Shown: positions 7 through 49,948 of the stretch, one piece after another
Position numbering within the stretch: the stretch's first letter is position 1
Layout of the letters: each line of letters begins with the position of its first letter
NCBI GenBank assembly: GCA_009392915.1
Contig: CP045477.1
Coordinates: 768,001-832,000, forward strand
Source of the DNA: Candidatus Forterrea multitransposorum CG_2015-17_Forterrea_25_41
Lineage (GTDB): Archaea > Iainarchaeota > Iainarchaeia > Iainarchaeales > CSSED10-239
DNA: 64,000 bases
Direction: 5' to 3'
Notes under the pieces: model-generated
Seen by the model: the letters and a program-made list of their open reading frames with translations, nothing else
Database searches by the model: none
What the model was told of the DNA's origin: nothing
Program-made: the position numbers and the translations under genes

Positions 7-756
7 ATGTATATTACATTATTTTCAAAATTTATTAAAAAAGACTTAATTACTATAAATAGTGATGATGTAATTGAATATTTATCTTATTTAAAACAAG
101 AAAAAAAAGCTGAAAGTACAACTATGAACTTAGTTCTTTCTGCAATTAAGCATTTTTATTCTAATTTTTTAAAAATAGATTTAGAACTTAAAATTAAATT
201 ACCAAAAAAAGCTAAAAAGATACCTGTTGTACTAACATCTAAAGAAATAATTTTACTTTTAGAAAATATAACTGATTTAAGAAATAAATTAATTACACAA
301 TTTATTTTTTCAACAGGAGTTAGAATTTCTGAATGTATGGAAATGAAGTATAAAGATTTAGATTTTAATGAATATACAGGAAAAGTTGTTTCTGGTAAAG
401 GAAATAAAGATAGAATAATAATATTATCTAAAAAATGGGTTGAAGAATATAAAAAATATCTTGAAAATAGAAAAATATCATCAGAATATTTGTTTTGTAA
501 TAGTGTTGGAAAACCATTATCTGTAGATACTGTTCAAAAATTTTTAAAAATAGCTGCTAAAGGAGCAGGAATTGATAAAAAAGTATCTCCTCACACCTTA
601 AGGCATTCTTTTGCAACTAACCTGCTTGAAAATGATGTTAATATTAGATATATACAACAATTACTAGGGCATGCTAATCTAAATACAACACAAATATATA
701 CTAAGGTTAATACAAATAAATTAAAAATTATTAAAAATCCATTAGATGATTTGTAA
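7..756 (+). CDS. Tyrosine recombinase/integrase (XerA/XerC-like); the reading frame is open to the window edge, so it may be 5' partial
   Basis: The C-terminal catalytic signature is present: Arg in TGVRISE, H-x-x-R in HTLRHSFATNLL, and His...Tyr in LGHANLNTTQIYTKV. An N-terminal core-binding-like domain is also present. Confidence 0.8.
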   Translation: MYITLFSKFIKKDLITINSDDVIEYLSYLKQEKKAESTTMNLVLSAIKHFYSNFLKIDLELKIKLPKKAKKIPVVLTSKEIILLLENITDLRNKLITQFIFSTGVRISECMEMKYKDLDFNEYTGKVVSGKGNKDRIIILSKKWVEEYKKYLENRKISSEYLFCNSVGKPLSVDTVQKFLKIAAKGAGIDKKVSPHTLRHSFATNLLENDVNIRYIQQLLGHANLNTTQIYTKVNTNKLKIIKNPLDDL

Positions 757-940: not shown

Positions 941-1303
941 ATGACAACAAGAATTTCAAAATTATTTGGTATGGATATTTACCAAACAGATGCTACTTAT
1001 AGAGGAAAAGTTCATGATTTAATAGTAAATATTGAACAAGGTGTTATTGAAACTATAACAACTCAACCTTTAAAGGTAAATTCAAAAATAGAAGCTAAAA
1101 AAATAATAACAGAACACAGTATACCTTATAATAAAGTTATATCTGCTGATGATATTATTTTAATTAATGCAGGAAACGTACCAACTAATAAAAAAGAAAC
1201 TAAAATGGTTGCTGAAGAAACAATAGATCCTGCTAAAAGTAAAGATGCAGCTATAAGAAAGAAATATATAGGTTATAAAAGTAAATATTCTGCAAGAAGG
1301 TAA
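941..1303 (+). CDS. PRC-barrel domain protein
   Basis: The N-terminal pattern GMDIYQTDATYRGKVHDLIVNIEQGVIETI resembles archaeal PRC-barrel proteins (G.xVyd..G..iG.V.Dvvid...g.i). The C-terminal tail is lysine-rich. Confidence 0.5.
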   Translation: MTTRISKLFGMDIYQTDATYRGKVHDLIVNIEQGVIETITTQPLKVNSKIEAKKIITEHSIPYNKVISADDIILINAGNVPTNKKETKMVAEETIDPAKSKDAAIRKKYIGYKSKYSARR

Positions 1304-1446: not shown

Positions 1447-2046
1447 GTGTCTCTCTTGAGCAAAATAAAATCAATATATATAAAATATAAATTTATGTTT
1501 AAAGATGATATTAATAGATCTTCTTATCTTTATCAAAAAGTATTTAGATCTATATATGGTTATCAACAAAATGTAACTAAAAAAAATAACAAACCATATT
1601 TATATATTAGAAAAGGAATTTTAACAGATATACCTCATTACAAACCAGGAAGAAATGCAGTAATTATTCCTAAAGGTTATGAAAATAAAATTATTGATTA
1701 TTTTTCAACAGGAATTAATCCAGCACATAATTGGAAAAGTAAAGGTGATTGGGATGTTAAATATACTGTTGATGAAATTGATTTAGATTCATCAAATATT
1801 ATTAAAATTATGGAAGATTATATTTATAATTATAAAATAATTAATCTTAATAATAAAGAAACGAATATTTATGATGAATTAAAATATATTACTGAAAATA
1901 ATATTTATGATAAAAATCATTTAACTAATATTTCTAAAATTGTAGAAAATATTATTAATTTTGAATGGTTTAAAGAAGTTAAAGAAGAATCAGAAAAATT
2001 AATTAAATTTTATAATAACTATTTAGAAATAAAAAATAAAATTTAG
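1447..2046 (+). CDS. Hypothetical protein. The annotated start is GTG; the ATG giving MFKDD... about 48 nt downstream is a more plausible start.
   Basis: Long ORF with no recognisable motif. It converges on the tandem AGTAATTACT repeats. Confidence 0.4.
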   Translation: MSLLSKIKSIYIKYKFMFKDDINRSSYLYQKVFRSIYGYQQNVTKKNNKPYLYIRKGILTDIPHYKPGRNAVIIPKGYENKIIDYFSTGINPAHNWKSKGDWDVKYTVDEIDLDSSNIIKIMEDYIYNYKIINLNNKETNIYDELKYITENNIYDKNHLTNISKIVENIINFEWFKEVKEESEKLIKFYNNYLEIKNKI

Positions 2047-2054
2047 TTTTGTAA

Positions 2055-2105
2055 AGTAATTACTATATTTTTTTTAGTAATTACTATTATTTTTTAGTAA
2101 TTACT
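2055..2105. repeat. Three tandem ~21 bp direct repeats, each containing the perfect 10 bp palindrome AGTAATTACT preceded by a T-run
   Basis: GTAATTAC cores at 2056-2063, 2077-2084 and 2097-2104, spaced 21 and 20 bp apart. Located in the convergent 3' intergenic region between ORFs 1447..2046 and 2105..2734. Confidence 0.85.
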
Positions 2106-2734
2106 TAATTTTCTTTAATAAATATAATATTTTTTTTCCAAGTTCTTTTTTTACCAGTATTATTTAATTTAATTAAATTTATATCTGTTAGTGTTTTTAA
2201 GTAAGGGTAAAGACTTTTTTCATTAGAATATTCTACATTAAAATTAAGTTTAATATTGTGTCTAATTTCATCCATTGTTACCCATTTATCTGTTGGTATA
2301 GAATTAATAATATGTTCTGCTTGAGTATTTTCTTTAATTTTTATTATATCCCAAATTGTATTTAATTGTTTGATTGAAATGTTTTCAACATCAGCTGTTT
2401 GAACATTATCTTCTACTATATTATTTTTATTATTAAGATATTTTAATTGTAATAACTTTTCTTGTTCTAAGTATTTTTCATTACTTAAATTTTCACTAAA
2501 ATTATTATTTTGAGTAATATTTTTATCTATATTTTCAGATGAATAGGGTATACTATTTGTATTATTAATAGTATTTTTTTCTATAGAAATATTTGAATCA
2601 TTATTTGTATTTTTATTGTTTTCATTAGTTTTTTCTTTTGAAAACATCTTTTTAATAAATTTTAGTAATCCCATATATATAGTAATTACCGTAATTATTT
2701 TAAATAGATTGGTAATTACAGTAATTATATGCAT
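2105..2734 (-). CDS. Asn-rich low-complexity protein with a putative C-terminal winged-helix DNA-binding domain. The true start is probably Met21 (ATG at 2674..2672).
   Basis: The first 20 codons (ITVIT...ITVIT) are simply the translation of the GTAATTAC repeats. The C-terminus (KWVTMDEIRHNIKL...SLYPYLKTLTDINLIKLNNTGKKRTWKK) has a helix-turn-helix plus basic-wing character. Confidence 0.45.
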   Translation of the reverse strand: MHIITVITNLFKIITVITIYMGLLKFIKKMFSKEKTNENNKNTNNDSNISIEKNTINNTNSIPYSSENIDKNITQNNNFSENLSNEKYLEQEKLLQLKYLNNKNNIVEDNVQTADVENISIKQLNTIWDIIKIKENTQAEHIINSIPTDKWVTMDEIRHNIKLNFNVEYSNEKSLYPYLKTLTDINLIKLNNTGKKRTWKKNIIFIKEN

Positions 2735-2784
2735 TTATTTATGGTAATTACTGTAATTATATTAAAATTTAAGTGGTAATTACC
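2681..2784. promoter_or_regulatory. Array of four GGTAATTAC palindromes at ~31 bp periodicity (cores 2682, 2712, 2744, 2776). The first three are each followed 2 bp later by a degenerate half-copy GTAATTAT. The array overlaps the promoter and 5' end of ORF 2105..2734.
   Basis: Read directly from the sequence. The motif is far more frequent here than base composition predicts. Confidence 0.8.
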
Positions 2785-2887
2785 TAATATTTTATAAATT
2801 AAAAATTATATACTTAATTTTAGATCATATTTTTATGTAGCCTATAATAAATTAATTATATTTTTAGTAATTTATACTATTTTTTAT

Positions 2888-2909
2888 CGTAATTACCATG
2901 GTAATTACT
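2888..2909. repeat. Two more GTAATTAC palindromes 12 bp apart (cGTAATTACCatGGTAATTACt)
   Basis: Read directly; same motif family as 2055-2105 and 2681-2784. Confidence 0.8.
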
Positions 2910-3100
2910 TATTAAATAACCTTAAAAATAGTTTATTTTTATAAAATTAGTTAAATTTATGTTTCTTTATTGATTTAAAGGTTTATTTTAACTTTATTTT
3001 TAAAATAATTAGTTTATAAGTTTTATTTGTGTTAAAAATTAGGTTTTTTGTAATTTCAAAATATGTCCAAGAAAGATAGTAAATAACTAATAATTTTGAG

Positions 3101-3175
<75 letters not shown>

Positions 3176-4588: not shown

Positions 4589-4622
4589 CTTTCTATTATT
4601 TTTTATTTTAAAATAATTATTA

Positions 4623-4697
4623 GGGCTCGTAGCTCAGTCTGGTAAGAGCACTGGACTCTTAATCCAGGTGTCGTGGGTTCAAATCCCACCGAGCTCA
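4623..4697 (+). tRNA. tRNA-Lys (anticodon CTT)
   Basis: Near-duplicate of the previous tRNA, with anticodon loop CTCTTAA. Confidence 0.8.
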
Positions 4698-4722
4698 CTT
4701 CCTTAATACTTTAAAAAATAAT

Positions 4723-4796
4723 GGTTCCGTAGCTCAGCCTGGGAGAGCAATAGGCTGAAGACCTATGTGTCGTGGGTTCAAATCCCACCGGAGCCA
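4723..4796 (+). tRNA. tRNA-Phe (anticodon GAA)
   Basis: GGTTCCGTAGCTCAG...ATAGG-CTGAAGA-CCTAT...GGTTCAAATCC...CGGAGCC-A. Confidence 0.75.
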
Positions 4797-5407
4797 TATT
4801 TTACTTTTTTTATAAAAATAATTTCTTCATCTGTTTCTATTGCTTTTCTGGCATTATCAAAAACTTGTTTATTTATTTTTATATTTTTATTAATTAGGTT
4901 TGTTTCTGGTGAATGAATTATTATGTTATCTACGTCATATCCTGTAATTATTATGAAGTGGCCTTGAAATGCACCTTCTTTTTGAAATAGTTTATTGTAA
5001 TCTACTAATATTATCGGTACATATCCATCATTGATTTTTGTTAATATATTTTCTATTGTAATTTTTTGTTCGTATATCTTAACATTTAACATTTTTGCTG
5101 TATCATACATTTTTTTAATATTAATTAATATTTCATCTTTTAAAAATGGATTTGCTGTTAAAGAAAATTCGTCTTCTGGCAATTTAATTTCAGTTGTTTT
5201 TGTATAAAATTCAACATCAAAACCAAATTGTTTACTGACTAGTGCTAATTGCAAACTATATAATCCTTTTCCTTCTTTATAACTTAATTTGTGCTTAATT
5301 TCTTTATTTGATTTTTCTTCTTTAAAATAAGCATACACCATTTTTAGTGCTATTGGGCCGCAATCAAATTTTTCGTCTTGTTGATAATAAGGTATGTTTA
5401 AGTTCAT
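4778..5407 (-). CDS. Papain-like cysteine peptidase, C39-like domain protein (standalone)
   Basis: Catalytic Cys in QQDEKFDCGPIALKMV and His in QGHFIIITGYD. The 3' end overlaps tRNA-Phe by about 19 nt. Confidence 0.45.
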   Translation of the reverse strand: MNLNIPYYQQDEKFDCGPIALKMVYAYFKEEKSNKEIKHKLSYKEGKGLYSLQLALVSKQFGFDVEFYTKTTEIKLPEDEFSLTANPFLKDEILINIKKMYDTAKMLNVKIYEQKITIENILTKINDGYVPIILVDYNKLFQKEGAFQGHFIIITGYDVDNIIIHSPETNLINKNIKINKQVFDNARKAIETDEEIIFIKKVKYGSGGI

Positions 5408-25307: not shown

Positions 25308-28300
25308 TTAAAAAAAGTTAGATAAAGATTTCTGTTTCATTTCTTCTTTATCAACAAACAGAGAATTAATATCTTCTTCAGCTAGAATTACTTTCTGATA
25401 AAGATAAGGTTTTAATTCATATTTTTTAATTAAGTTTTTTGCAACTTCTAAATATTTTTTAATAGAACCTTCATGTATTGTCATTACAAGTTTACCTGAA
25501 CAATTAAGACAAATACCAGAAAGAGGAATTCTTCTATACTTAGAATTACATTTAATACATCTTAGTCCTTGACGAGCAAAAGCTCTGGTGTTACCAATAA
25601 TGTCTGGGAATAAGTGATAGTGTAATAATCTTTCAAGAGCATCTTTATTATCTACTGCTCTTATCTTTTTTTGAAGTTCTGCTTGTCTATCAACTTTATC
25701 TTGCATAGATTTAATTGTAAGGTAAGCACTCATTTTTGGTCCTTCATCAAAAATAGAAGTATCATGTGTAAACTTCATACAAGTATATTGATCTTCAGTT
25801 CCTAGATAATCAGAAACATATTTTAAATTTTTATCATCAGCATCTAAAAATCTTTTAGAGTTTTGATAAAATTCAAAAGGATATTCTGTAGCTGTTTCAA
25901 TTTCATAACACTCATCATCAATTTCATAAGGGTTAACAACAGTTGTAAAAGCAATAGGTGCATCCATTCTTCCACCTCTACCTTTACTTAAATATTTAGG
26001 TGAAAAATTTAATAATGCATCCATTAAAAGCATTATTGAGTCTTGATCTCCATCTACATTTCTTCTTTTAGCTGTAATAAAAAAAGGATGTCCAAAACAA
26101 AGTCTTGCTTTTGAAAAACCTAATATTCTTCCTACAATTCCAGCTGATGTGTGTGGTGCAAGACCAATTACAAGTTCACCAATTAATTCTTCTTTGTCTT
26201 TAAAATTAAAATATTTTTCTTTTTTATAAAATTTTTCTAAAAGATCATCAATAAATCTTGTAATTTTTAAAAAATATTCAGCAGTGTGATCTGAAATAAT
26301 TATGTCTTGTGGAAAAAGATCAATTATTTGATTTTCATCTTTTATTTCTTTTCCTTGATAATCTATAACATAACCTAGTTCTTTAACTTTTTCAACAGTT
26401 AGGTTAAGTTCTTTAGGTTTAAATTGAGTGATGGTTGCATTTAATGCTTCATATCTAATTGTTCCATCTCTAAAAACATAAAGTCCGTGTTTACTTCTTA
26501 ATATTCCTTTTTCAAGAGCTTCTGTATATTTTTCTTGACTTGCAAGTTCTTTAAAACCTTTTAAAGTCTCAGGCACACCAACACCAAGATTATTAATTGC
26601 TTTTTTAATAAGGTCATCTAAATTTACTTTATTATTTATTTTTGCTCTTCCTTCTTCATTACATACAGGACAAGTTTTATTAAAACTAATTTTTTTACAA
26701 CTATAACATTCATATAGTTCTTTAGTTCTTTGATCACACTCTAAGCAGTAAGGTGTAAACATTATTTTTTTACAACTTTCACATTGATATCCTTTGACTT
26801 TAATATCCATGCTTCCAGAATAGTTTTTCTTAGAATCAATTGTTTTTAATAGATCTCTATTGTTTCCAAAACCTTCTCCAACAGGAAAAATAGTTGCACT
26901 TTTACCTGGCAAAATTCTTTCGTGTGCAGCTTCTGGTCTTCCCATTCTTGCTCCAATAAAACTTCCTGCTTTTTCATTTATTTTTAATTTTGAAATTATT
27001 GTTAATTTTTCAACAATTGTTTTTTGTTTATCTTCTAAAACTTCTTTAAATTCTTCAAGAGGATTTGTTGCATTAAGTGCACCAAGAGTTTTTAAAAAAG
27101 GATATGCTATTTCTTTTTCAAGTAATATTTTATTTTCTTCTAGAAGATATTTATGTTCAACACCTATTTTTTCTAAAATACTTTTTATAACATTATTTGT
27201 TTTTATTTTTGCACCAATAATTTTATCTTCTAAAAATATTTTTTCTGCAGTTCTAAATTTTTCAATAAGTATTTTTAGTTCTTCATTATCAAGAAGTGAA
27301 TAATAGGCAATGTATTTTGGATATAAAGAAACTTTATACTTTAAACTTAAACTAATTGCTTTATAAGGATCTGGGTTTTTATAAAATTCATACAGATTTT
27401 CAAAATCATCTTCTGTTATTTCTTCTTTTCTTAAAAGATATTTCATTTCAGAAAGCCATTCTTCTTCAACATATCCTGCTTTAATTAAAGGATGTCCACT
27501 TTTTTTAAAGTCTCCAATATTAATTAAAATATCTCCTAAAAAAAGTATTTTTTCTATTGATTCTCTATGTTTTAAAGCTTCTTTAACATTATTAATTTTA
27601 ATTACATCTTTATTTTTTAATCTTACAATTGGACCTTCGATACTATCACATGGAAAATACTGTAAAGACTTTCCTGGTCTTTCAATTCTGCCGTGTGTTC
27701 CAACTGCTATAAATTCTTCTAAAATATACATGGTTGCAGGGTTTATTGCTTTTGCCATAAGCCCAGTTGTTCTTGTTTTACCATACCTAAGTCTAAATCC
27801 TCCAGGTACTAAAGGGTATGAGAAAACTGGTCTTCCTGCTGCAAGTCCTTCTAGATATTTTGTTGAAGGTTTAAGTTCAAAAGAACCTTCTGAGGTTTTT
27901 TTAACTTTAATTAATTTTTCAAGCCAAGACCAATCAAGTCCTAATACTTTACTTGTTTTTAATATTTTCATGGCTCTAACATAAACACCATCAATCATTA
28001 CAAGACACATTGCACCTCTTACTCTGTTTGTTTTAATTCTTTCAAGATCTCTGTTTACCATTAATTCAACATCACTATCAGGACCACTATTAATACACAC
28101 AGGGCAATTTTCTGCAATTACTCTTATTTCATCTTCAGTAACTCTTTGTTGTCTAACAACAACATCTGATTGATAAATCATATTTTCTTCAATTAATCTA
28201 TCAACTTCTTGTTTTGAAGGTTTATATCTATCTAGATGTAGTTTTTTTCTTGCAAGGTCTGCAAGAAGTACAGGTAAGGTTTGTGCATTTCCTCCTGCAG

Positions 28301-28754
28301 CTCTAATAGGTCCTGCAAAATAAATATCAGGATATTTTGAACCATCTGGATTTGTTGAAATTTTTATTTCTGGAAGTCCATCTAAGGGAGAAACAACAAC
28401 TCCGTCTGTTTGAATAACTAAAGCAGTTCTAATTGCTTGTTCTAATCTTTTTTCTGGATCTTCAATTCCACCTAAAGTCCCATCTAAAATTTGATTAAAT
28501 ATATCTAAAGTAACTTTAAATCTATCATGGTTATGTACTTCCCATAGATCATGATATATTTTAGAAACTCCTTTTGGTCCAACTAAAATTTCTGTTTTTT
28601 CAGCAATACCTTGTGCAGGAAATGTTTCTATGTCTGTATCAATATCTCTTCCAGTCTTTCTTGCATCTTTTGCAACATCAACTTGATTATTTATCTTTTC
28701 TGTGAGTTTTTCAAAATATTGAGAAACATCTTTTCTTGCAATTATTTTTATCAT
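25308..28754 (-). CDS. polC: DNA polymerase II (PolD) large subunit DP2; no intein
   Basis: Length and multiple conserved DP2 blocks, including the C-terminal zinc cluster CIKCNSKYRRIPLSGICLNCSG. Confidence 0.9.
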   Translation of the reverse strand: MIKIIARKDVSQYFEKLTEKINNQVDVAKDARKTGRDIDTDIETFPAQGIAEKTEILVGPKGVSKIYHDLWEVHNHDRFKVTLDIFNQILDGTLGGIEDPEKRLEQAIRTALVIQTDGVVVSPLDGLPEIKISTNPDGSKYPDIYFAGPIRAAGGNAQTLPVLLADLARKKLHLDRYKPSKQEVDRLIEENMIYQSDVVVRQQRVTEDEIRVIAENCPVCINSGPDSDVELMVNRDLERIKTNRVRGAMCLVMIDGVYVRAMKILKTSKVLGLDWSWLEKLIKVKKTSEGSFELKPSTKYLEGLAAGRPVFSYPLVPGGFRLRYGKTRTTGLMAKAINPATMYILEEFIAVGTHGRIERPGKSLQYFPCDSIEGPIVRLKNKDVIKINNVKEALKHRESIEKILFLGDILINIGDFKKSGHPLIKAGYVEEEWLSEMKYLLRKEEITEDDFENLYEFYKNPDPYKAISLSLKYKVSLYPKYIAYYSLLDNEELKILIEKFRTAEKIFLEDKIIGAKIKTNNVIKSILEKIGVEHKYLLEENKILLEKEIAYPFLKTLGALNATNPLEEFKEVLEDKQKTIVEKLTIISKLKINEKAGSFIGARMGRPEAAHERILPGKSATIFPVGEGFGNNRDLLKTIDSKKNYSGSMDIKVKGYQCESCKKIMFTPYCLECDQRTKELYECYSCKKISFNKTCPVCNEEGRAKINNKVNLDDLIKKAINNLGVGVPETLKGFKELASQEKYTEALEKGILRSKHGLYVFRDGTIRYEALNATITQFKPKELNLTVEKVKELGYVIDYQGKEIKDENQIIDLFPQDIIISDHTAEYFLKITRFIDDLLEKFYKKEKYFNFKDKEELIGELVIGLAPHTSAGIVGRILGFSKARLCFGHPFFITAKRRNVDGDQDSIMLLMDALLNFSPKYLSKGRGGRMDAPIAFTTVVNPYEIDDECYEIETATEYPFEFYQNSKRFLDADDKNLKYVSDYLGTEDQYTCMKFTHDTSIFDEGPKMSAYLTIKSMQDKVDRQAELQKKIRAVDNKDALERLLHYHLFPDIIGNTRAFARQGLRCIKCNSKYRRIPLSGICLNCSGKLVMTIHEGSIKKYLEVAKNLIKKYELKPYLYQKVILAEEDINSLFVDKEEMKQKSLSNFF

Positions 28755-28769
28755 TTAATATTCTCTTTT

Positions 28770-30197
28770 TCAAATTTCTTTTTCTAAAAAATCTTTTATT
28801 AAAAGTTCTTCTGTTTTTAAATTAAATAAAAGCGCTTTTGAAACTGTTGGAATATGTCCTAACTCTTTTTGAAAATCTGTCATGTCTTGCCAACAAGATG
28901 ATGCTATTAAGTGTACATGCTTATATTTAGAATATGCATGATGATGAACATCTGCAGTTATAAAAATATCTGGTACTTCTTCAATAACCATTAGATTTTT
29001 TTCAATAGGTACAAATGTTTGTCTATGACCATATTGTGGCATTAAATCTCTTCTTTTCAAAACTTCTATCATTGCTGTATCTGGTTTATCCATTTTTGCA
29101 TTTTTAATTTCTGTGTAAATTCCATGAAGTGAAGCTCCATGATACATTAATGTTTTAAACCCTTCAATAACAACCCAAGCAGGAGATCCTAAGATGTGAA
29201 TATTTTCTTTTTCATAAAGTCTTGGAAGATATTCTTTTGTAATTGCAGGTTGTGGGTCTGATAATCTTACTGCATCATGATTTCCAGAAATAATAAATAT
29301 TTCAATATCTTCTCTAATTTTTAAAATATATTCTTCAAACAATTCATATTGTTTTTTAATATCTGTAATTGCAAGTTCATTAAACTGTGAGGGATAAACT
29401 CCGATACCATCAACTAAATCTCCAGCAATAATTAAATATTTTATTTTTTTAGTAAGTTCTTTTTCTTCTTCAAAATTACCATTTAACCATTCTATAAATT
29501 TTAAAAATTCTTTTTCTTTAAATTTTTTAGATCCTACATGCACATCTCCAATTATTGTAAGATAAACATCTTGAGGTAGGTTGTGTGTTTTTCTTTCAAA
29601 AGGAATATCTGGATAAATTACTTCATTTACAATTAACATATCTTTTGAAAGTAAAGATGTTTTAAAACCTAAAACATTATCTAAAAGAATTTCTTTGTGT
29701 TTAAAGAATTCATTTTCATCTTTATTCATGATTACAAGTTTTATTTGACCTGTAGGATCATCAATTGTTAAAATTAAATTTCCGTTTTTACTAATTCCTT
29801 TATCATAAACCATCCCAATAACATCAGCTGGTTTTCCTTTAACAAGTAATCTTGCTTGTTCAATTGTTGTGTATTCAAAATTAGGTCTTGTTTTAATCAT
29901 TTTAGATATTTTTTCATATTTGTCTAAAAATAGTTTATGGAAGTCTTCAATACTTCCTTGTGAATAGTTTTTACCAGTTATATCATACTTATCTAAAATA
30001 TAAAAATTTTTAAAATATTTTTTATCTTCTTTTTGATTCTTAACATCAAGAATATCTTTTTCTTTAACAATAAATAAGTTTTTTTCTTTAAGTTTATTTA
30101 AAATTTCTTTATAGTTATCACTAGACAGATGTTTTAATGTCTCAGGTGTAAGAATTAAATTATTTTCTTTTGCATATTTTATGATTTCATTATCCAT
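28770..30197 (-). CDS. polB: DNA polymerase II (PolD) small subunit DP1 (calcineurin-like phosphoesterase)
   Basis: GDVHVGS, ISGNHD and related phosphoesterase motifs. Adjacent to DP2. Confidence 0.85.
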   Translation of the reverse strand: MDNEIIKYAKENNLILTPETLKHLSSDNYKEILNKLKEKNLFIVKEKDILDVKNQKEDKKYFKNFYILDKYDITGKNYSQGSIEDFHKLFLDKYEKISKMIKTRPNFEYTTIEQARLLVKGKPADVIGMVYDKGISKNGNLILTIDDPTGQIKLVIMNKDENEFFKHKEILLDNVLGFKTSLLSKDMLIVNEVIYPDIPFERKTHNLPQDVYLTIIGDVHVGSKKFKEKEFLKFIEWLNGNFEEEKELTKKIKYLIIAGDLVDGIGVYPSQFNELAITDIKKQYELFEEYILKIREDIEIFIISGNHDAVRLSDPQPAITKEYLPRLYEKENIHILGSPAWVVIEGFKTLMYHGASLHGIYTEIKNAKMDKPDTAMIEVLKRRDLMPQYGHRQTFVPIEKNLMVIEEVPDIFITADVHHHAYSKYKHVHLIASSCWQDMTDFQKELGHIPTVSKALLFNLKTEELLIKDFLEKEI

Positions 30198-44009: not shown

Positions 44010-44939
44010 ATGATCAATTTTAAAATAAAAAATATACCTATAAGAAAAAAAGGAGTTTTAGCTCCTATGCAAGAGTATACTCATCTTCCATTTAGACTTC
44101 TTTGCAAAGATTATGATGTAGGTTTATGTTATACAGAGATGGTGAATATAAATCACATTATTCAATATAAAGAAGATTTATCTAAATTAGATCTTTTAGC
44201 ATCTACTGAAAAAGAATCTCCTGTATCTTTACAGTTGTTTGGAGATTTAAGTTTAAAAAAAACAATTACTGCTGCTCATTTAATTGATAATTATAAATAT
44301 TTTGATATTATTGATTTTAATTTAGGTTGTCCTTCTTTAAAAATAATTAATAGTAAGTCAGGTTCTTATAATTTAAAGCAATTAGATAAAGTTTATCCAA
44401 TAATTAAAGAAATTGTTTCTACTTCTAAAAAACCAATTACTGTAAAGGTAAGACTTGGTTTTAAAGAAGATATTTTAGAGGATATGATTAATAATTTTGA
44501 AAAGATTGGTGTTTCTGCAATTGCTGTTCATGGTAGACTTGCAAAAGAAAATTATAGTGTTCCATCAAAAATTTCAAGAGTTGAGGAAATTAAAAAAATT
44601 ACTTCACTTCCAATAATTTATAATGGAGATGTTAATGAAACAAATCTTGGACATGTGAATAAGTTTTCTGGAATTATGGTTGGCAGAGAAGCTTTAGGCA
44701 ATCCTTTTATCTTTAAGCAAATAGATTATTTTTCAAAAAATAATGTTCTTTTAGAAAAAGATTATTCTGATGAAGCTTTATTATCTTTTTTAGAATATGT
44801 TAAAGAATATCCAATTTCTTTTTCTAAACTAAAAGTATCTTTAATTCCTTTTTTTAAAGGTAAACAAGGTTCTGCAAGAATAAGAGAATTATTATCCAAA
44901 TCTAAAAATCTTAAAGAAATATTAAATATATTAAAATAG
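44010..44939 (+). CDS. dus: tRNA-dihydrouridine synthase
   Basis: LAPMQEYTHLPFR, DFNLGCP, flavin-binding TIM-barrel pattern. Confidence 0.75.
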   Translation: MINFKIKNIPIRKKGVLAPMQEYTHLPFRLLCKDYDVGLCYTEMVNINHIIQYKEDLSKLDLLASTEKESPVSLQLFGDLSLKKTITAAHLIDNYKYFDIIDFNLGCPSLKIINSKSGSYNLKQLDKVYPIIKEIVSTSKKPITVKVRLGFKEDILEDMINNFEKIGVSAIAVHGRLAKENYSVPSKISRVEEIKKITSLPIIYNGDVNETNLGHVNKFSGIMVGREALGNPFIFKQIDYFSKNNVLLEKDYSDEALLSFLEYVKEYPISFSKLKVSLIPFFKGKQGSARIRELLSKSKNLKEILNILK

Positions 44940-48682: not shown

Positions 48683-49948
48683 TTGAAAAATAAAACAATA
48701 AGCTATAAAAAACCAATTTATCTTAAATATAATATGAGTGATAACATTTTTTATGAATATTTAAACAAAGGTTCTCTATTTGTAAATAAAAATAAAATAT
48801 CACCTCATTATGTTCCAGAAAAATTACCTTTTAGAGATGAACAAATAAAAGAATTGTCCTTATGGCTTTCTCCTGCACTTAAAAAAGAAAAACCACATAA
48901 TATATTTATTTATGGAAAGGTAGGCACAGGTAAAACTTCTGCTGTAAGGCATGTTGTAAATCAATTAGATAGTATTTCAAAAGAAAATAATCTTTGTCTT
49001 TATACACTTTATCTTAATTGTAGAAATTATCAAACAAAACATGCTATTCTTTTTTACTGTGTTCAATCGTTTTATCCTGATAAAAATTTTGTAGGTTATT
49101 CAAAATCTTTTATTTATGATAAATTTATAACTTTTTTAAAAGAAAATGAATTGAATTTTGTTGTAATTTTAGATGAAATTGATAAAATTAAAGATAGAGA
49201 GATAGATGACTTAATATATACTTTATCTAGAAGTAATGATGAATTAGGTGTTGGATCTAGTGTTTCAATGATTGGTATTTCAAATAATTTATTTTTTATG
49301 TCAAGACTTGATCCTAGAACAAAAAGTTCTTTATGTGAGCAAGAGGCTGTATATCCTCCGTATAATGCTGAAGAACTAAAAGAAATTTTAAAACAAAGAG
49401 TATCTTTAACTTTTAAAGAAAATGTTGTTCTAGATTCTGCAATAAATTCAGCTGCTGCAATGGCTGCAAAAGAATCTGGTGATGCAAGGACTGCTTTAAT
49501 GCTTTTACTTAAAGCTGGTGAAATTGCAGATATGAATAAAAAAGATTTTGTAACTGATAAAGAAGTACATTTAGCAAAAGATAAAGTTGAACATGAGATT
49601 ATTAGAAGTATGGTTTTAACATTGCCTGTTCAATTACAATTAGTTTTACTTGCTATAACAGAAAGATCAGAATCTCCAAAAGGAATTTTAAAGATTGATG
49701 GATCTTATGAAGAAAATGTGCTTTATTCTGGTGAGATATACGATACATATATAGTTGTTTCAAATAAATATGGTGAAAAACCAGTGTCTATGAGATGGTT
49801 TAGAGAGTATATCAATGAATTAGAAGCTTATGGTTTCATTTCTACTACTCAATCAGGTAAAGGTGTTAAAGGAAACACCACTTTAATAAAATTAGGTGTT
49901 GATTCTAAAAGCATAAAAGATCTTTTAGAAAAAGAATTTAATGTTTAG
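48683..49948 (+). CDS. cdc6: Orc1/Cdc6 replication initiator. The annotated start is TTG; the ATG giving MSDNIF... at about 48734 is more plausible.
   Basis: Walker A YGKVGTGKTSAV, Walker B VILDEID, C-terminal winged helix. Confidence 0.85.
   Translation: MKNKTISYKKPIYLKYNMSDNIFYEYLNKGSLFVNKNKISPHYVPEKLPFRDEQIKELSLWLSPALKKEKPHNIFIYGKVGTGKTSAVRHVVNQLDSISKENNLCLYTLYLNCRNYQTKHAILFYCVQSFYPDKNFVGYSKSFIYDKFITFLKENELNFVVILDEIDKIKDREIDDLIYTLSRSNDELGVGSSVSMIGISNNLFFMSRLDPRTKSSLCEQEAVYPPYNAEELKEILKQRVSLTFKENVVLDSAINSAAAMAAKESGDARTALMLLLKAGEIADMNKKDFVTDKEVHLAKDKVEHEIIRSMVLTLPVQLQLVLLAITERSESPKGILKIDGSYEENVLYSGEIYDTYIVVSNKYGEKPVSMRWFREYINELEAYGFISTTQSGKGVKGNTTLIKLGVDSKSIKDLLEKEFNV

Follow-up and report, generated by a model that had tools for sequence, protein, structure and literature searches.

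The 64,000-nt stretch of Candidatus Forterrea multitransposorum DNA analyzed here (contig CP045477.1, positions 768,001 to 832,000 of the forward strand; hereafter the window) carries ordered arrays of the 8-bp palindrome GTAATTAC on both sides of one small gene, which encodes an orphan protein of 189 aa with a predicted C-terminal winged helix-turn-helix (wHTH) domain. The comparison of this locus across Iainarchaeota, a phylum of DPANN archaea, suggests that the arrays are probably cooperative, helically phased operators, to which the wHTH protein would bind in order to repress its own gene.

The palindrome arrays and the promoter of the wHTH gene

Nine exact copies of GTAATTAC were found within 2056–2908, as had been counted in an earlier note made from the letters of this DNA: three in a 3′ array (starts at 2056, 2077 and 2097), four in a 5′ array (2682, 2712, 2744 and 2776) and two in a distal pair (2889 and 2901). 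The enrichment claimed in that note was also borne out, with 13 copies in the whole window against 1.24 ± 1.13 expected from dinucleotide shuffles, a number matched by 0 of 100 shuffles. The note had seen only one or two copies elsewhere; there are in fact four (7735, 18666, 30700 and 48520). Each of them is solitary and lies inside a long open reading frame (ORF), and they are thus at chance level. No second cluster of GTAATTAC was detected anywhere else in the 64 kb. When the sites of all the loci compared below were considered (298 distinct sites), the flanks were found to widen the palindrome to R-GTAATTAC-Y.

The 3′ array (2055..2105; no strand is assigned to this or to any of the other sites) consists of three AGTAATTACT sites spaced by 21 and 20 bp. 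The stop codons of two convergent genes flank it, one on each side, and on the plus strand T8 and T6 runs come after its first two sites. This array was seen elsewhere only in close relatives (loci L007, L008, L009 and L024 of the comparison set) and is therefore regarded as a lineage-specific addition. The sites of the 5′ array are spaced by 30, 32 and 32 bp, and three of them are followed 9 bp later by GTAATTAT (2691, 2721 and 2753), in agreement with the helical-turn distance reported in the note. Read along the minus strand, which is that of the gene, the composite unit is ATAATTAC-N-GTAATTAC. On its own, GTAATTAT is weakly enriched over the whole window (16 vs. 9).

Three composite operators are predicted in the 5′ array: O1 (2682..2698; ATAATTAC-G-GTAATTAC in gene orientation), O2 (2712..2728; from motif positions and repeat analysis) and O3 (2744..2760; within the duplicated unit 2736–2766, repeat families D3, D4 and D6). 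The fourth site, O4, is a single GGTAATTACC obtained from the motif count (2776..2783). The distal pair (2889..2908), with its two sites 12 bp apart, lies 113 bp, or 11 helical turns, from O4 and ~215–230 bp upstream of the ATG. Equivalent distal pairs were observed in L007, L008 and L014 (12 bp apart), and in L003 and L005 (22 bp apart).

A 62-bp block comprising a TATA-like box, an operator pair and an ATG is duplicated in the window (2674–2704 and 2736–2766, 87% identical). This duplication explains the ~31-bp rhythm of the 5′ array, and also explains why the mechanical ORF (2105–2734) runs through the repeats, since it supplies an in-frame upstream ATG at 2734. The gene itself is predicted to occupy 2105..2674 on the minus strand and to start at Met21 of that ORF, as had been proposed from the letters. 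This proposal was supported by the N-termini of the homologues, which align with Met21 (MGLLKFIKK.../M..NIFKK...), by the over-extended N-termini of P0011 and P0033, which are translated repeats too (‘ITVIT’), and by the succession of TATA, operator and ATG.

In archaeal promoters the TATA box stands at about −26/−27. The sequence preceding ATG 2674 reads tatTTAAAATAATTACGGTAATTACtatatatATG in gene orientation, and the TATA-like box read from it (TATTTAAAATA, 2696..2706, minus strand) is centered ~27 nt upstream of the ATG, which would imply a leaderless mRNA. The predicted site pair O1, at −24 to −8, would then sit between the TATA box and the start, in the geometry of a leaderless promoter with a putative transcription start. 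This placement agrees with that of autoregulated archaeal repressors, whose operator is expected to overlap or abut BRE/TATA or to fall between TATA and the transcription start.

The block TTTAAA-ATAATTACGGTAATTAC-TATATAT-ATG recurs in L001, L003 and L005 (~50% protein identity). Moreover, a site directly after TTTAA/TATAA and 4–17 nt before the ATG was found in the window and in L001, L003, L005, L034, L040, L044, L065 and L072, and L044, L051 and L072 have a TATA box with a variant site fused to it. The layout of operator, TATA and start seen in the window is repeated in at least 12 other loci. In the spacer between the tRNA and the gene, Rfam searches at gathering and at E up to 1 gave the tRNA alone, and neither intrinsic terminators nor surplus promoter-like sites were detected by a scan of bacterial type, which is of little value here.

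Conservation of protein, sites and spacing across Iainarchaeota

The alignment of the wHTH family shows four parts: a conserved N-terminus (MGLLKFIKKMF or M..NIFKKLL...), an Asn-rich linker of very variable length, a predicted helix, and a conserved C-terminus of ~85 residues (WD..ENTQAxH....W..M.EI...I...F...Y.NEKSLYPYLKTLxDI.L......GKKRxWKK). In the window, the N-terminal part is a conserved, predicted cationic amphipathic helix, LLKFIKKMFSK (2636..2668, minus strand), which the Asn-rich linker follows. The N-terminal 11-mer is cationic and amphipathic in 35/35 members, with a hydrophobic moment of 0.5–0.9 and a net charge of mostly +1 to +4. The C-terminal winged HTH suspected in the earlier note was corroborated by structure prediction: residues ~105–185 (2120..2362, minus strand) were modeled by AlphaFold as a winged helix with a predicted local distance difference test (pLDDT) of 87–92, and the linker as disordered, with pLDDT <50. 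A predicted DNA-binding domain, at pLDDT ~90, would also be in keeping with the autoregulated repressors. The recognition region (NEKSLYPYLKTL, GKKRxWKK) is near-invariant across the family, as is the motif.

Foldseek returned generic winged-helix folds alone (Fur N-domain, BlaI/MecI, PadR, ArsR/SmtB, STIV F93, Sso10a and TubR), with probability ~1, E of 5e-3 to 3e-2 and TM to target of 0.4–0.69. No Pfam match to the wHTH protein was obtained at E up to 0.1, except for a sub-threshold TMEM9 within the translated repeats; no NCBIfam family was found, and there were 0 PDB sequence matches at E up to 10. At 90% identity the homologues fall into 87 clusters, all of them unnamed or ‘hypothetical’ and none with a Pfam domain. 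The nearest public relative of the gene, with 92% protein identity, belongs to a metagenome-assembled genome (MAG) of ‘Candidatus ainarchaeum sp.’ A profile search of 1.84 billion representatives yielded 40 clusters, all family members or fragments, with no twilight zone. By these searches, the family is isolated and restricted to the phylum Iainarchaeota.

The comparison set consisted of 80 loci, one genome per species, nearly all labeled Iainarchaeum or Diapherotrites and spanning 20–49% GC; the complete genome GW2011_AR10 is among them. Of the 72 scorable loci, 70 have at least one exact GTAATTAC in the 800 nt that precede the wHTH domain, and the density of the motif upstream was 3.83/kb, versus 0.09/kb in the other 567 kb of the loci. 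In total, 280 copies were observed in the 80 loci, where 10.4 were expected by a first-order Markov model; in the loci of at least 38% GC, the same model gave 2.3 expected for 58 observed. The number of sites ranges from 1 to 12 per locus, and they are positioned in the promoter, the coding region and the 3′ end. GC-richer genomes typically have 1–3 sites, one of them right after TTTAA/TATAA and 4–17 nt before the ATG; the TATA box often has the variant RTAATTAT fused to it, and a further site lies 41, 51 or 82 bp upstream. In a few lineages (L046, L047 and L050), GTAATTAC is replaced by GTAATGAC, and the recognition helix is the same. Additionally, a different repeat, AGTTAGGCACTAC, was observed in at least seven copies in the upstream spacer and 5′ coding region of one Iainarchaeum MAG (L060, ~4590–4960).

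The spacings between adjacent sites were analyzed in a set of 144 spacings from 41 distinct locus patterns, de-duplicated by spacing pattern. They peak at 10, 21, 31, 41, 51, 62, 82, 92, 103 and 113 bp. The mean resultant length reached a maximum of 0.73 at a period of 10.3–10.4 bp, with phase ~0, and the best of 2000 random sets gave 0.28; for the window alone the value was 0.85. The phased spacings indicate that the sites share one helix face, as expected of interacting bound proteins.

The mechanism proposed from these data is the following. The wHTH protein would recognize the 8–10 bp palindrome R-GTAATTAC-Y. The TATA box of a leaderless promoter would be abutted, or closely followed on its downstream side, by one site or a 9-bp tandem pair, whose occupancy would block the binding of TBP/TFB or the recruitment of RNA polymerase, leading to negative autoregulation. 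The other sites would be placed at integral multiples of ~10.3 bp on the same helix face, so that cooperative binding, contacts between the bound dimers and bending or looping of the DNA would be possible. Within the AT-rich clade to which the window belongs, the array would have grown through duplication of the 62-bp TATA-operator-ATG unit, and the sites added 3′ of the gene could serve as a roadblock or as a loop anchor. Three analogies had been offered in the earlier note (iterons, a centromere-like site and a looped auto-operator), and it is the last, a looped or cooperative auto-operator, that fits best.

The conserved gene neighborhood

The window (~23% GC) carries TFE, aTrm56, MutS/MutL, PolD and Orc1/Cdc6. 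The wHTH gene is convergent with an orphan gene of 199 aa (1447..2046, plus strand), whose product has a ferredoxin-like N-domain and a helical C-domain. Beyond it lie a gene for a PRC-barrel protein (941–1303, plus strand) and XerA (7–756, plus strand, cut by the window edge; 249 bits with NCBIfam recomb_XerA_Arch vs. a cut-off of 220). Upstream of the wHTH gene and on the same strand is a tRNA-Met (CAT) (3100..3175, minus strand), with a conserved non-coding spacer before the first site, and after it come TFE and then aTrm56. Both the recombinase and the tRNA had been recognized in the earlier note.

This organization is found phylum-wide, in the order Trm56, TFE, tRNA-Met, sites, wHTH gene, convergent orphan gene, PRC-barrel and XerA. 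When the window proteins were compared with the 80 loci by tblastn, the 199-aa gene was found in 74, the PRC-barrel gene and TFE in 72 each, Trm56 in 67 and XerA in 65, with order and orientation constant; contig ends are the main limit on these counts. In 76 fetched loci and in the window, the site cluster has a tRNA with the same T-arm 20–500 nt upstream of it, and three homologues of the wHTH protein with ~50% identity keep the same gene order and the proximal block.

The possibility raised in the earlier note of an integrated plasmid or virus-like element, with this locus as its module for replication or maintenance, has become extremely improbable, and it was rejected. It had in its favor a tyrosine recombinase 1.3 kb away and a tRNA gene adjoining the array, but by the curated cut-off of NCBIfam the recombinase is a housekeeping XerA, and the same gene order is kept in 65–74 of 80 species-level genomes over the whole GC range; the integrated element therefore fails as an explanation. 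Moreover, the flanks are core housekeeping genes (TFE, aTrm56, MutS and MutL), no composition break was seen in the window, and PHROG and PADLOC gave no matches for the wHTH, 199-aa or PRC gene. The wHTH protein has no Rep domain, no Rep-like or ParA-like gene was found near its locus, and Orc1/Cdc6 is 46 kb away.

Some other features of the neighborhood were also recorded. The gene for the 199-aa protein and the wHTH gene converge in every locus where the former was found; the model of its product (pLDDT 90) has an N-domain rich in invariant Tyr, Lys and Arg, plus a helical bundle, and no significant structural or sequence relative of it was found. This protein may be a nucleic-acid-binding partner. 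TFE, tRNA-Met and the wHTH gene are co-stranded across the phylum. Inspection of the tRNA-Met (CAT) by eye showed an anticodon stem closed by three G-C pairs in succession, together with an A1:U72 end, and we take these features to be hallmarks of an archaeal initiator tRNA.

In the AT-rich clade, a conserved box, ~cACTAAaTCTTGGACA, was observed 30–150 nt 3′ of the tRNA-Met gene (3064–3077 in the window, minus strand), and it is shared at the same position by L001, L003, L005, L007–L025 and L074. The GC-richer relatives have 1–4 CTCACT(T)T boxes in that spacer instead. No significant repetition of the box was seen in the rest of the window; it fits one dif arm of P. abyssi at 8–9 of 11 positions and has no inverted partner. 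Two loci with bacterial labels, L011 (Bacilli bacterium) and L015 (Candidatus Vampirococcus lugosii), carry the archaeal Trm56-TFE-tRNA-wHTH-199-aa-PRC-barrel block, and they are thus probably Iainarchaeota contigs mis-binned into bacterial MAGs.

The proposed autoregulation, its alternatives and its significance

Several observations weigh against the auto-operator. All of its support is comparative, and the spacing statistics include related genomes and are hence phylogenetically non-independent. A palindrome of 8 bp is short for a canonical wHTH dimer. The recognition helix does not covary with the motif variant GTAATGAC of L046, L047 and L050, so the identity of the binder is deduced from co-location alone. 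Simple autorepression needs 1–2 sites; the sites conserved within coding regions exceed it, and it leaves the 3′ array unaccounted for. The gene’s own 5′ coding region contains exact sites in several clades; they encode (G/S/R)-N-Y, codons that are the sole conserved islands of the otherwise variable linker. Others are found farther away: two sites 31 bp apart inside trm56 (L016, L021 and L025), five in the MutS/Trm56 spacer of L015, and 4–7 across the inserted GT2-like and Dus-like genes of L049, L062 and L069, which in that clade stand between the tRNA and the wHTH gene and are so named from motif reading only. The Dus-like gene of the window (44010–44939) has zero sites. A regulator with no visible target beyond itself, in the window and in the loci, would also be odd to conserve phylum-wide.

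The coding-region and 3′ sites fit equally an extended cooperative repressor complex and an architectural complex that marks the locus. The latter, a minority possibility that is not mutually exclusive with the auto-operator, would have the wHTH protein mark the locus and tether it to the membrane or to the division or segregation machinery through its N-terminal helix, in the manner of a centromere, Noc or MatP, autoregulation being a by-product. It would account for sites that persist in coding sequence and up to ~2 kb from the gene (in trm56, in the spacer of L015, and in the inserted genes of L049, L062 and L069), for the 3′ array of some lineages and for the one-faced arrangement over >200 bp. 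The conserved cationic amphipathic helix, followed by a flexible linker, is arranged as in bacterial Noc (PMC4331003), yet its membrane binding is hypothetical, and amphipathic helices also mediate protein contacts. XerA and the PRC-barrel protein, present in the phylum-conserved neighborhood, form a candidate division or segregation neighborhood in Iainarchaeota; the haloarchaeal PRC-barrel proteins CdpB1-3 act in division, but such proteins have other housekeeping contexts as well (bioRxiv 10.1101/2023.03.28.534520). By contrast, the high-GC members have 1–3 sites only, all of them promoter-placed. No ParA/SegA-type Walker ATPase was found within 9 kb on either strand or in the conserved neighborhood, and a ParABS/SegAB/AspA-type partition locus was rejected for lack of this partition ATPase. 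A dif/MatP-like system was rejected too, as no dif-like 11-6-11 site was found in the 80 loci; the best match in them to the dif arms of P. abyssi (PMC2958812) was of 16–17 out of 22 positions, in inconsistent places. The more specific proposal that the wHTH protein is a locus-specific chromosome anchor rather than primarily a transcription factor, with the phased array, kept even within coding sequence, nucleating a one-faced complex that the helix tethers to the membrane or the division machinery, is considered unlikely.

That another factor, such as a global regulator, binds the motif, the wHTH gene being just its most conserved target, appears quite unlikely. Such a factor would be compatible with the lack of covariation between helix and motif variant, with a binder inferred from co-location, and with the GTAATTAC tandems on unrelated metagenome contigs that have no wHTH gene, for example L248. 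However, the 620 kb of related sequence contain the motif almost exclusively around the wHTH gene, the product of this gene has a DNA-binding fold with a recognition region no less invariant than the motif, and no arrangement is more common for such pairs than autogenous control. A replication origin is a very unlikely alternative, in which the repeats would be initiator elements like iterons or origin recognition boxes (ORB) and the wHTH protein an origin-binding factor. The repeated sites on both sides of a gene for a DNA-binding protein, the strongly conserved synteny, and the 450–650-nt stretch from tRNA to ATG, which is long for a compact genome and non-coding phylum-wide, would agree with it. 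But Orc1/Cdc6 (48683–49948; Cdc6_lid, Cdc6_C and AAA domains) lies 46 kb away with no such motifs around it, the wHTH protein has no AAA+ or Rep domain, and many high-GC members have 1–3 sites at the core promoter. The GC skew over the 64 kb has no clear extremum or switch at 2–3 kb, but it tracks gene orientation and is uninformative here. The motif is, to our knowledge, unlike the described ORB or mini-ORB elements. Assignment to the archaeal oriC class was not supported, as orc1/cdc6 is not adjacent to the locus, whose repeats are 8-bp palindromes located at a promoter. The surroundings of Orc1 are tightly packed, with hardly any non-coding DNA, and the replication origin may thus lie elsewhere than beside orc1.

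Two sets of side observations belong here. The contig L248 (Ga0209821_104429, 1.7 kb, 51% GC) carries seven GTAATTAC in tandem clusters at 240–720 (ATAATTACTGTAATTACTAGTAATTAC and others), with no detectable homologue of the wHTH protein on the contig, and L318 has eight copies with a period of ~100 bp; the motif may thus also be in use in other organisms or elements. A metagenome scan with RTAATTACNGTAATTAC gave at least 120 matches, of which none among the matches listed encodes the wHTH protein, and a scan of viral_contigs with GTAATTAC-N10-16-GTAATTAC gave single chance pairs only, both scans being uninformative on other targets in Iainarchaeota. As regards replication genes, the PolD DP1/DP2 operon (25308–30197) is also in the window and is not adjacent to Orc1/Cdc6.

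The predicted auto-operator was also compared with known systems. The archaeal Lrp-like autoregulators, or feast/famine regulatory proteins (FFRP; Ss-LrpB, Pyrococcus LrpA, FL11 and Ptr2), bind clusters of imperfect palindromes in their own control regions; as here, the sites are on one face and two to three helical turns apart. Their binding is cooperative and wraps the DNA, it extends from the promoter into the coding region in FL11 and Ptr2, and repression takes place beside the TATA box by blocking the recruitment of RNA polymerase; roadblock effects have been described for them as well (PMC2995911). However, membership of the Lrp/AsnC (FFRP) family was rejected: HTH_AsnC and the RAM effector domain (AsnC_trans_reg) are absent from the wHTH protein by Pfam, and the domain order is reversed, with an amphipathic helix, a disordered linker and a C-terminal wHTH. 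The palindrome is of 8 bp here versus ~13–15 bp there, and the present system has a 3′ array and targets that, so far, are seen only at its own locus.

The fold-matched small proteins (BlaI/MecI, PadR, ArsR/SmtB, Fur N-domain, STIV F93, Sso10a and TubR) share the winged-helix fold, several of them are autoregulators, and TubR coats repeat arrays. By contrast, no sequence relationship with them was found in PDB, Pfam, NCBIfam or the profile search of 1.84 billion representatives, and there is no metal-binding, sensor or partner-ATPase/GTPase context here. Noc brings DNA to the membrane through its N-terminal amphipathic helix (PMC4331003), and it binds palindromic sites and forms large nucleoprotein complexes (PMC4331003, PMC8429893); it has an unrelated ParB/CTPase fold, whereas the present protein has a wHTH and its membrane binding is hypothetical. 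The Noc sites are scattered over the chromosome, whereas those of GTAATTAC are clustered at one locus. In archaeal oriC/ORB regions beside orc1/cdc6 and in plasmid iterons beside rep, repeats are also placed before or around a gene for a DNA-binding protein, which is autoregulated via the same repeated sites. The present case differs from them in the absence of an initiator-type domain, in the distance to orc1/cdc6, and in being a chromosomal locus of conserved synteny with short perfect palindromes at the core promoter.

The DPANN archaea are uncultivated and have small genomes, and we know of no regulator-operator pair that has been experimentally tested in them; a literature search for the motif GTAATTAC returned nothing relevant. 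The locus described here provides a testable pair, formed by the 189-aa protein or its ~90-aa domain and an invariant palindrome of 8–10 bp, with natural variation on offer in the number of sites (1–12), in their spacing (multiples of 10.3 bp) and in their position. The new orphan wHTH family could receive a family model, and its analysis corrects start codons that are mis-called through the repeats. Additionally, coding sequence doubles as a predicted operator by means of the (G/S/R)-N-Y codons. If the architectural role were true, the system would bear on chromosome organization and segregation in minimal archaea, and a protein acting as a chromosome anchor would represent a minimal centromere-like or Noc-like system in DPANN archaea, without ParA/SegA at the locus.

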